This document shows, one piece after another, positions 29,197 through 29,929 of a DNA stretch of 45,272 bases. How positions within the stretch are numbered: the first letter of the stretch is position 1; each line of letters opens with the position of its first letter. The DNA is taken from sequence record PP925841.1; one strand, given 5' to 3'. Made by a program: the position numbers and the translations under genes. The notes under the pieces are model-generated. The model did not search any database. It was not told where the DNA came from and worked only from the letters and a program-made list of their open reading frames with translations. Origin of the DNA: Escherichia phage HannyBb.

Positions 29197-29772
29197 TTAA
29201 GGATTCATTAAGCAATGTCGCAACCACCAATAAATCCGCTTAAGAACATGAAAATTGATTACTGGTATAAAGCGCTTACAGTTGTTGGCGCTGCGTTGTT
29301 TGTCTTTAATGGAACGTCTTTTTTTGACAGATATCCCGTTGTTCCATTGGTTTTTTTGTCCTCCGGCATCTTTTTTATTGGTTTGGGGGAGTGGATTAAT
29401 CACCCTCTCAAAGTGAGATTTATTGGTCCTGGAGTTTGGACTCGTGGATATAATCGTTCTTCGTGCGCACTCGGTATCATCTTCGACATACTTGGTTGTT
29501 TCCTGATTGTTACAGGAGTCGTCAAGTTCTTCTGATGTAAAACCGCAAATGGGGCACGTAACGGGAATTTTGAAAAGCGTTTCTCCGGGTTCCAGAACAA
29601 AATTTTCTGCGGTCTGATTTTGCTTCTCATATTTGTGCTCCGCGTCATTGTGAGAGCACATTCTTATTCTGAGTGCCTGTTTAAACTCACTGAAGCTGAG
29701 AGCTTCTTCGCCTTCGGCAAGGCCTTCGAAGTATTCTTCGTAAGCCTTTTCCATGATTGTGTCGAAATCCAT
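29197..29772 (-). CDS. YdfB-like protein (N-terminal ~80 aa credible; 3' two-thirds overlaps an antisense membrane-protein ORF)
   Basis: ORF beginning MDFDTIMEKAYEEYFEGLAEGEEALSFSEFKQAL with a CPICGF zinc-ribbon-like element; start is adjacent to the ydfA stop; the K/N/R-rich distal part looks like antisense translation. Confidence 0.4.
   Translation of the reverse strand: MDFDTIMEKAYEEYFEGLAEGEEALSFSEFKQALRIRMCSHNDAEHKYEKQNQTAENFVLEPGETLFKIPVTCPICGFTSEELDDSCNNQETTKYVEDDTECARRTIISTSPNSRTNKSHFERVINPLPQTNKKDAGGQKNQWNNGISVKKRRSIKDKQRSANNCKRFIPVINFHVLKRIYWWLRHCLMNP
29215..29535 (+). CDS. Small two-helix membrane protein (possible superinfection-exclusion-type moron) antisense to the ydfB-like ORF
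   Basis: 106 aa with two strong hydrophobic helices (ALTVVGAALFVF; VVPLVFLSSGIFFIGLG; ALGIIFDILGCFLIVTGVV); AAGGA 13 nt upstream. Confidence 0.4.
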   Translation: MSQPPINPLKNMKIDYWYKALTVVGAALFVFNGTSFFDRYPVVPLVFLSSGIFFIGLGEWINHPLKVRFIGPGVWTRGYNRSSCALGIIFDILGCFLIVTGVVKFF

Positions 29773-29773
29773 A

Positions 29774-29929
29774 TCACTCACCTGAGTTTCTTTCCAGCCA
29801 GCGACGGGCACCATTTTCGGTTTTAAACGTTTTGCTTTTGGTATACGTCATCGCGGTGAACGTACCGTCCTGGTTGGGGAATACGCCACATACCAGAGAT
29901 TCGTTGTTGCCAAGATCGATAGTATCCAT
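29774..29929 (-). CDS. ydfA: YdfA-like small protein
   Basis: 51 aa, MDTIDLGNNESLVCGVFPNQDGTFTAMTYTKSKTFKTENGARRWLERNSGE; GAGG Shine-Dalgarno upstream; first gene of the leftward early operon. Confidence 0.65.
   Translation of the reverse strand: MDTIDLGNNESLVCGVFPNQDGTFTAMTYTKSKTFKTENGARRWLERNSGE

Follow-up and report, generated by a model that had tools for sequence, protein, structure and literature searches.

When two long open reading frames (ORFs) overlap antisense in a bacterium, one of them is usually written off as a shadow ORF, and the published cases of embedded antisense genes are mainly expression-based and taxonomically narrow. In the Escherichia coli cases, ano and three genes in EDL933, coding ORFs lie on opposite strands and one is embedded in the other (PMC5960689, PMC9927249, bioRxiv 10.1101/2020.11.18.388249). 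Here we examine a candidate for such an arrangement in Escherichia phage HannyBb (PP925841.1; its analysed stretch of 45,272 nucleotides is called the window), in a minus-strand early-left region of the Qin/DicB lambdoid type, where a plus-strand membrane-protein gene lies inside a leftward ORF that begins as ydfB and continues as a phage gene that we call X.

Several other described systems bear on this locus. In phage lambda, which has N antitermination, the membrane-protein gene sieB (34482-35036, plus strand; 184 aa) abuts N within the pL operon. The rexA and rexB genes form a tandem, co-directional accessory module by the repressor, in which rexA follows cI and one integral membrane protein is paired with one soluble partner. 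Type I toxin-antitoxin loci, which are frequent on prophages, combine a hydrophobic peptide, usually of fewer than 60 aa, with a non-coding antisense RNA that represses it, as in hok/sok and tisB/istR. In prophage Qin of E. coli K-12, a YdfB of 42 aa is followed by ydfC, and transcription of the polycistronic ydfABC-dicF-dicB unit begins upstream of ydfA at dicBp, where DicA acts as repressor (PMC10448788).

A probable antisense-nested gene pair

The comparisons reported here indicate that the locus is a mobile cassette of two genes, one of which lies antisense inside the other, and that selection within it has three targets: the sequence of the membrane protein, the N-terminal domain of X and the stop-free state of the X frame. 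The parts of the cassette are the following.

29215..29535, plus strand: membrane-protein gene, 106 codons (ORF calling, homologues, dN/dS)
29197..29772, minus strand: fusion ORF ydfB'::X, 191 codons plus stop (ORF calling; ydfB ATG at 29772)
29671..29772, minus strand: ydfB-derived part, codons 1-34 (K-12 Qin identity, phrog_2061)
29536..29598, minus strand: conserved N-terminal core of X, outside the overlap (VLEPGETLFKIPVTCPICGFT; CPICGF motif at 29539-29556)
29200..29535, minus strand: tail of X, same-register antisense of the entire membrane gene (stop-codon scan)
29155..29671, no strand assigned: mosaic segment relative to K-12 Qin (pairwise BLAST)

The plus-strand ORF (321 nt) is nested wholly within the 576-nt minus-strand ORF and in the same codon register, giving an overlap of 321 nt or 107 codons. 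The TAA stop of X at 29197-29199 sits 16-18 nt past the plus-strand ATG, and across lineages this stop always falls 15-36 nt beyond the start of the membrane gene. An alternative upstream ATG at 29814 would extend the minus-strand ORF to 29197-29814 (205 codons). A first-pass annotation of the window had reported a 191-codon minus-strand ORF with a K/N/R-rich tail over the plus-strand ORF, and coordinates and composition are as it claimed (30% K+R+N in the distal peptide, net charge +9). It had proposed that either a membrane-protein moron was inserted and the ydfB frame reads through by chance or one of the two ORFs is spurious.

The plus-strand membrane-protein gene

Homologues of the plus-strand ORF, about 100-110 aa long and down to 34% identical, occur in Yersinia, Herminiimonas, Reinekea, Pantoea, Roseateles and many metagenomes. 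Columns W17, Y18, G58, E59, W60, N62, H63 and P64 are invariant across the family, with the motifs DYWYKA and GLGEWINHP. The ratio of nonsynonymous to synonymous substitution rates (dN/dS, or omega) of the gene is 0.12-0.18 among enterobacterial lineages, with dS from 0.5-0.8 up to saturation, and 0.13 in an independent phage clade. These values show strong purifying selection on the membrane gene, and on the comparative evidence as a whole the plus-strand ORF is a real gene.

The product is predicted to be a conserved inner-membrane protein of 106 aa with three helices. An AlphaFold2 (AF2) model with a predicted local distance difference test score (pLDDT) of 85 places helices at residues 17-32, 42-62 and 85-105, with a beta hairpin at 65-79, in agreement with the peaks of hydropathy. 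The earlier description as a two-helix membrane protein was right about the membrane protein but not about the number of helices, since the AF2 model and hydropathy give three.

RefSeq annotates the plus-strand ORF in a minority of genomes, as hypothetical protein WP_122990131.1. A Pfam scan of the membrane protein at E<=1 gave noise only (TMEM238, DUF7103), and for both proteins and 41 family members there was no usable match in Pfam, NCBIfam, PHROG or PADLOC, the only hit, phrog_35040, being the same minus-strand ORF. A fold search of the membrane protein against BFVD and PDB returned nothing at E<=0.001 and no TM-score >0.5, and a viral scan queried with the Yersinia protein gave no match.

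Some database variants of the plus-strand ORF (P0015, P0016, P0026, P0032 and P0009) are frameshifted at runs of 6-7 T (window 29320-29380). These may be long-read sequencing errors or real slippage; a frameshift in such a run would disrupt both overlapping genes together.

Openness of the antisense frame

TTA, CTA and TCA, the only codons of the membrane gene that make stops in X, are absent from it in all five enterobacterial lineages. Antisense stops are missing from the X register, and the two remaining antisense frames contain 2-4 and 9-16 of them. Openness extends to 7/7 phage or mobile-element lineages reached through the plus-strand ORF (five enterobacterial, one Pantoea and one Roseateles) and to about 30 further clusters found through X; 14 clusters of type B and about 15 of type A (the two kinds of X described below) span the whole membrane gene. 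Non-phage homologues have 0-17 antisense stops; most of those at similar GC have 3-17, and a minority, mostly GC-richer, have none.

The probability that the frame is open in any one lineage is 0.07-0.10 under the codon usage of the window (0.076 for this gene), 0.005-0.013 under the usage of AT-rich genes and <0.0001 to 0.03 under the gene's own third-position usage. When evolution was simulated forward from the window sequence with selection on the sense strand only, the probabilities were 0.14, 0.08, 0.023 and 0.013 at the divergences of lineages L129, L018, L011 and L008, respectively. The overlap is within chance in this single genome and is non-random only when lineages are compared, the joint chance for five independent lineages being about 4e-4 even at a lenient base rate of 0.21. 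Since the cassette recurs beside a repressor in many temperate phages, the long overlap is one of its inherited features; the openness of the frame is probably selected, and chance read-through is unlikely.

Avoidance of rare codons or of the TA dinucleotide was considered as a cause of the missing TTA, CTA and TCA and rejected, given that codons ending in A account for 15-28% in the remaining four-fold families and that ATA is used.

The N-terminal domain of X and its relatives

The antisense frame is also open in loci that carry no ydfB fusion, namely L018 and L129 (Escherichia), L011-L013 (metagenomic P22-like prophages), L010 (Yersinia), L023 (Pantoea) and L021 (Roseateles). An ATG is present for X in each lineage. 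In L018 and L129, X starts at the position and ribosome-binding site of ydfA; Shine-Dalgarno-like sequences are visible by eye in the window, L011 and L010, and in L018 and L129 they come from the conserved ydfA leader.

In the window the N-terminal core (N-core) of X reads LEPGETLFKIPVTCPICGFTSEEL; across lineages its codons differ mainly at third positions, with I, P, C, P, C, G and F preserved. A codon alignment of five lineages gave ratios of nonsynonymous to synonymous differences (pN/pS) of 0.24-0.8, with 12, 10 and 19 variable columns at the first, second and third codon positions, and the median ratios in three groups of X proteins are 0.35, 0.36 and 0.52.

When 1.8 billion representative proteins were searched with a profile, about 40 additional X-like proteins, 135-170 aa long, came up, and the X core also occurs in Roseateles and in metagenomic and viral lineages. 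Type A proteins share the N-domain consensus LPPGWKFxPLYxxCPxCGxDL, in which CPxCG is invariant in 19 sequences that are mostly less than 50% identical to each other; the N-domain of type B, LERxxPGSVxxDxxxxxVTLIGWxLEQF, is Cys-free and conserved in 12 proteins. The tails of X-like proteins all bear the antisense images of DYWYK and EWINH, and in each case where the DNA of such a protein was retrieved, an intact membrane protein is encoded opposite it. A tblastn search with X against INPHARED phages gave no match. The two CxxC knuckles that supply the four zinc ligands of a zinc ribbon or rubredoxin-like finger were not found: there is one conserved CPxCG, the other Cys residues are lineage-specific, and the type B N-domain has no conserved Cys.

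Proteins of about 90 aa that have the type A core (LPRGVKIETLYSECPKCGCDL), an unrelated C-terminus and no membrane gene opposite were seen in L207 (2905-3243) and L208, and L231, L233 and L235 look alike. Such N-core-only proteins are encoded directly after a cI-like repressor with helix-turn-helix (HTH) and S24 domains. The existence of these relatives without a membrane gene shows that the N-domain of X is an autonomous unit.

Individual loci depart from the usual form of X. In L129/L127, a second E. coli lineage, and in P0064-P0066, X lacks its usual stop and reads in frame through the conserved block into ydfC, so that the called ORFs are 245-271 aa long. Near the X start, L008 differs by 1 nt in an A-run, and L203 and L206 have lesions in the X core, the one in L206 being a 1-nt frameshift in the knuckle that leaves the tail still open.

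Taking the two ORFs jointly, we consider it fairly probable that both are genuine genes and that X is coding.

The tail of X

Over the overlap, dN/dS of the antisense frame is 1.1-1.7. The observed amino-acid differences in this frame (33 and 42) equal those in simulations with selection on the sense strand only (33.8+-3.3 and 42.7+-3.4), and among type A lineages the membrane proteins are 61-78% identical, whereas the X tails encoded by the same DNA are only 31-52% identical. The AF2 model of the minus-strand ORF is mostly disordered (pLDDT 42). On this evidence the amino-acid sequence of the tail evolves as a passive shadow of the membrane gene, with only openness being selected.

Mosaic origin and fusion to ydfB

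Pairwise BLAST showed that homology to K-12 Qin spans positions 28301-29154 and 29672-30000 of the window. Nucleotide identity over 29672-30000 is 96.7%, and this homology ends at 29671/29672. The intervening 517 bp (29155-29671) substitute for 396 bp of K-12 Qin that hold the last 9 ydfB codons and ydfC. The N-terminus of the minus-strand ORF is homologous to YdfB (MDFDTIMEKAYEEYFEGLAEGEEALSFSEFKQAL; phrog_2061, E=3.6e-30 over residues 1-48 of the 205-aa ORF), and a full-length 42-aa YdfB followed by ydfC is absent, as homology stops after codon 34 and there is no ydfC. The 205-aa ORF corresponds to phrog_35040 and to cluster P0062, which has 1798 member sequences. Phage mEp460_ev081 has a third filling of the same slot, and the variable slot relative to mEp460 is 29182-29785.

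These boundaries indicate that the minus-strand ORF consists of ydfB codons 1-34 joined in frame to the phage gene X, rather than of ydfB running on, and that X here lost its own start in the mosaic recombination and is fused to those codons. The in-frame junction itself may be a matter of chance (1 in 3). The comparison with Qin that the first-pass annotation had proposed for an indel at 29200-29650 thus yields the mosaic replacement at 29155-29671, set against a K-12 YdfB of 42 aa. Its suggestion of a moron insertion is borne out, in that a foreign segment with a genuine rightward gene replaced part of the leftward operon. Its suggestion that ydfB reads through by chance is not supported, because the open antisense frame belongs to the cassette and is present without the ydfB fusion, with starts of its own and the CPxCG domain.

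The mosaic segment is present in 806/5426 complete E. coli genomes, always on the chromosome and never on a plasmid, and most of the records listed carry no annotation for it. In the RefSeq entries whose flanking genes we inspected, ydfB is labelled a pseudogene missing its C-terminus and the plus-strand ORF is sometimes annotated; both genes are missing from most of the RefSeq records inspected.

Genomic context

A repressor gene is adjacent to the cassette or its core in the window, Yersinia, L011-L013, L018, Pantoea L023, L205 and L207, and viral loci bearing the membrane gene lie beside a repressor in 17/20 cases for type A and 18/19 for type B. In the commonest layout the repressor gene is followed by a co-oriented X, with the membrane gene convergent; this is seen in the window clade (where ydfA intervenes), L018, L129, Yersinia, L011-L013, Pantoea and the clade in which X starts MSTSANRKM. 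In L205 and L209 the membrane gene is within the repressor's own operon with X opposite, and in type B viral loci it is upstream of the repressor on the same strand. These several orientations show that the cassette is autonomous and repressor-associated but not bound to one orientation. Non-phage homologues occur without X among variable small genes, and no conserved partner gene was found for them. Literature searches returned nothing on this cassette.

In L205, a metagenomic phage (3429-3680, minus strand; 4592-5389, minus strand), the membrane gene comes last in a string of genes headed by the repressor, one of them of the BssS family, and X lies opposite, so that the layout is reversed relative to E. 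coli.

In the window, the following features surround the cassette, and the same leftward region also carries dicB, ydfD and an exonuclease gene.

30122..30529, minus strand: gene for a DicA-like HTH repressor, located upstream of the operon and co-oriented with it (RefSeq, identical locus)
29774..29929, minus strand: ydfA (DUF1391), first cistron of the operon (Pfam PF07151, E=2.4e-28; RefSeq)
28885..28936, minus strand: DicF small RNA, a downstream element of the same operon (Rfam RF00039, 72.5 bits, E=3e-15)
29146..29185, plus strand: conserved block upstream of the membrane gene (six-lineage comparison)

The block of about 40 nt at 29146-29185 (L003 2147-2182) is kept in the window, L129, L018, L011, L008 and phage mEp460_ev081. 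Within it are an inverted repeat, GCCTG..CAGGC, and hexamers that resemble promoter elements (TTAACC at 29153-29158 and TATCCT at 29175-29180), and AAGGA at 29199-29203 is a candidate Shine-Dalgarno sequence of the membrane gene. In mEp460_ev081 a different rightward ORF begins at the same distance from the block, which suggests a slot or promoter common to rightward accessory genes; the block may act as the promoter of the membrane gene.

Three minor observations concern the surrounding sequence. Between DicF and dicB, at 28678-28887 on the minus strand, there is a sub-threshold Rfam match to STnc100 (33.5 bits compared with a gathering score of 47, E=9e-5). The sole terminator-like hairpin of the region (29712-29731, plus strand; CTTCGGCAAGGCCTTCGAAG followed by a T-rich tail) lies within the ydfB-derived part about 180 nt past the membrane gene, and matches of this kind occur at chance frequency. 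Past the TGA of the membrane gene, the same plus-strand frame is open for 97 further codons in the window (29536-29826) but not in the other four lineages, so this extension is probably due to chance.

A possible expression switch

The two genes are convergent and fully overlapping, so that strong expression of both at once would be excluded and an either/or output beside the immunity repressor would result. We propose that expression of X and of the membrane protein, a prophage accessory function, is antisense-coupled and mutually exclusive. In the Qin-type context X lies in the DicA-repressed operon, and the membrane protein is therefore likely to be the partner expressed in the lysogen. X would be off in the lysogen, leaving the membrane gene free for expression, and firing of the leftward operon would switch the membrane protein off. 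As a prophage accessory protein it might have a role like exclusion or abortive infection.

That openness appears to be selected without selection on the peptide suggests a need for translation itself. X would then probably be translated end to end, as a ribosome-free leftward RNA that is A/C-rich and weakly structured would be a substrate for Rho, which terminates untranslated and antisense transcripts (PMC11551753, PMC5909445). Over the overlap the leftward RNA is 38% A with a C/G ratio of 1.18 overall and up to 1.7 locally, and it folds at -0.21 kcal/mol per nt, compared with -0.35 for the DicF leader. Premature termination would keep the antisense transcript from reaching the start region of the membrane gene and, in this operon, would also be polar on dicF and dicB. 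Operon polarity as a universal cause of openness was considered and is weakened by the cassettes in reverse orientation.

An antisense-nested cassette with an either/or switch is the best explanation that we have for the locus, and we regard it as reasonably likely; our confidence in the mechanism just outlined is lower than in both genes being genuine.

Alternative explanations

Several observations count against a selected open frame and a switch of this kind. Within the other genes of the window, the antisense frame of the same register is stop-free in 21% of stretches of 107 codons. Three E. coli variants (L131, L133/L134 and L122; 4/164 loci) have a stop in the X tail with the membrane gene intact, and in the L213-L234 clade (prophage contigs of about 40 kb from IMG/VR, where X starts MSTSANRKM) X is about 100 aa long with conserved stops after about two thirds of the overlap. 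These variants and the truncated clade indicate that full-length openness is not obligatory. The wobble positions of the N-core are common to one plus-strand frame, which therefore gives a similar signal. The X lineages found by profile search are biased toward open frames, and the dN/dS comparisons of type B and full-length type A sequences, being ungapped across indels, are unreliable for the membrane frame. The hexamers at 29153-29158 and 29175-29180 match just 8/12 consensus positions, so that the promoter assigned to the membrane gene is weak by consensus, and were for that reason left unreported by a promoter scan. Cassettes in other orientations (L205/L209 and the type B viral loci) mean that polarity on a downstream operon is not a general reason for openness; an untranslated gap of about 260 nt follows X in any case, and a literature search returned no ribosome profiling or proteomics for a cassette-bearing strain.

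Some of these observations would fit a shadow ORF, in which only the membrane gene is real and the minus-strand ORF is non-functional, open and joined to ydfB by accident. The base rate of open windows in this genome, the passively evolving tail with its predicted disorder, the RefSeq label of a truncated ydfB pseudogene and the stop-bearing variants and clade all agree with it. We nevertheless consider it unlikely, because none of the independently diverged phage lineages reached through the plus-strand ORF has a closed frame despite saturated synonymous sites (joint chance about 4e-4, and far lower with own-usage nulls), stop avoidance is confined to one frame, most non-phage homologues at similar GC are closed, and a conserved N-domain with coding-type substitutions lies outside the overlap. 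The L213-L234 clade, whose membrane protein has GEWKNHP in place of GEWINHP, also serves as a natural control: the distal third contains 2-5 stop-making codons, which shows that stops accumulate when they are not selected against. The converse, a real minus-strand ORF and a spurious plus-strand ORF, is ruled out by the omega values and by family-wide homology where the antisense frame is closed. The earlier idea that one of the ORFs is spurious thus finds no footing in purifying selection on a plus-strand ORF with homologues, nor in an X whose N-domain is conserved and whose frame is kept open.

Similarly doubtful is the possibility that full-length X is functional and needs its basic hydrophilic tail, for instance to bind nucleic acid or the membrane protein, with composition and length mattering rather than exact sequence. 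The frame is open to just past the membrane-gene start in most lineages, the net charge is +9, and residues forced by conserved sense codons are invariant (P from Trp codons; the FIPVI and INPL stretches), but the tail shows no constraint beyond that of the sense gene, is shortened by a third in L213-L234, is replaced by an unrelated C-terminus in the N-core-only relatives and has no fold in AF2. Far less probable still is that the conserved stretch right of the plus-strand stop is a plus-strand feature (a frameshift extension, small ORF, 3' untranslated region or terminator) and not the N-domain of X. The plus-strand frame that shares the wobble positions would encode a conserved peptide, D-x-K-P-Q-x-G-H-x-x-G-I, with a summed pN/pS of 0.58. 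In all five lineages, however, a stop directly precedes this frame, which lacks a conserved start and varies in its ends; no terminator hairpin was found, and CPxCG with upstream PxG...P recurs at 50-64% GC and in proteins without a membrane gene. We give an equally remote chance to the idea that X and the membrane protein are a sense-antisense protein pair, in which the X tail, as the codon-by-codon complement of the membrane protein, would have inverted hydropathy and would bind or gate the protein encoded opposite while the N-domain senses the state of the phage or repressor. If true, this would be a new kind of immunity-region switch or abortive-infection module with complementarity at both the RNA and the protein level from one DNA stretch.

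Comparison with known systems

Like sieB of lambda and P22, the membrane gene opposes a leftward early operon near the immunity region: it is placed between the minus-strand ydfA/ydfB and DicF/dicB and is oriented as sieB is in lambda. The sieB-type arrangement suggested by the first-pass annotation therefore stands for position and orientation, but SieB homology does not, as there is no match in Pfam, PHROG or PADLOC. The protein here has 106 aa and no similarity to SieB in sequence or family by those databases or in fold (BFVD, PDB). Over lambda sieB there is no minus-strand ORF of at least 80 aa, whereas the membrane gene here is wholly inside a conserved ORF. The feature table of J02459 (lambda; L201 1483-2037) contains no sieB coding sequence and has several product names displaced by one gene, yet the plus strand does carry the sieB ORF.

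The cassette resembles rexA/rexB as a two-gene accessory module by the repressor with one integral membrane protein and one soluble partner, and X mostly follows the repressor in the way that rexA follows cI. In contrast to the rex genes, however, the cassette genes are convergent and fully overlapping, and neither protein has a match to RexA or RexB in Pfam, PHROG, PADLOC or NCBIfam. With type I toxin-antitoxin loci it shares a small hydrophobic membrane protein and an antisense transcript across the start of its translation. Here the protein has 106 aa and three predicted helices and the antisense partner has a conserved coding domain, unlike the shorter peptides and non-coding RNAs of those loci. 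By sequence, the cassette belongs to none of the sieB, rexAB and type I toxin-antitoxin families. The likeness to Qin is in the first 34 codons of ydfB and in the context of a dicA-like repressor, ydfA, DicF, dicB and ydfD; the difference from K-12 is that the cassette replaces the C-terminus of YdfB together with ydfC.

There is also a likeness to ano and the EDL933 genes, where two protein-coding ORFs also occupy opposite strands of the same DNA. In this nested pair the signs of selection differ between the frames: the plus strand is clearly selected, with omega of 0.12-0.18, and on the minus strand an N-domain under purifying selection and significant stop avoidance stand beside a tail without amino-acid constraint and one clade with distal stops. 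Compared with those cases, the evidence here is comparative and deep, across phages of Gamma- and Betaproteobacteria, and it is the short embedded gene that is strongly conserved, the container ORF being selected mainly for its N-domain and for openness. Comparative genomics alone may offer a cleaner case of antisense overlap than expression-based claims. Three features, the N-domain of X, the stop-free frame and the repressor adjacency, are shared by Escherichia, Yersinia and Pantoea temperate phages, a probable Roseateles mobile element and many uncultured phages. If the switch is real, prophages would have in it a new means of ensuring that a membrane protein of the lysogen and an early lytic function are not expressed together. 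What is new relative to the systems described so far would be a deeply conserved antisense-nested gene pair as a repressor-associated phage cassette, which we favour, with some reserve, on the view that both genes are genuine, and in which one DNA stretch separates two kinds of selection, for sequence on one strand and only to stay open on the other.

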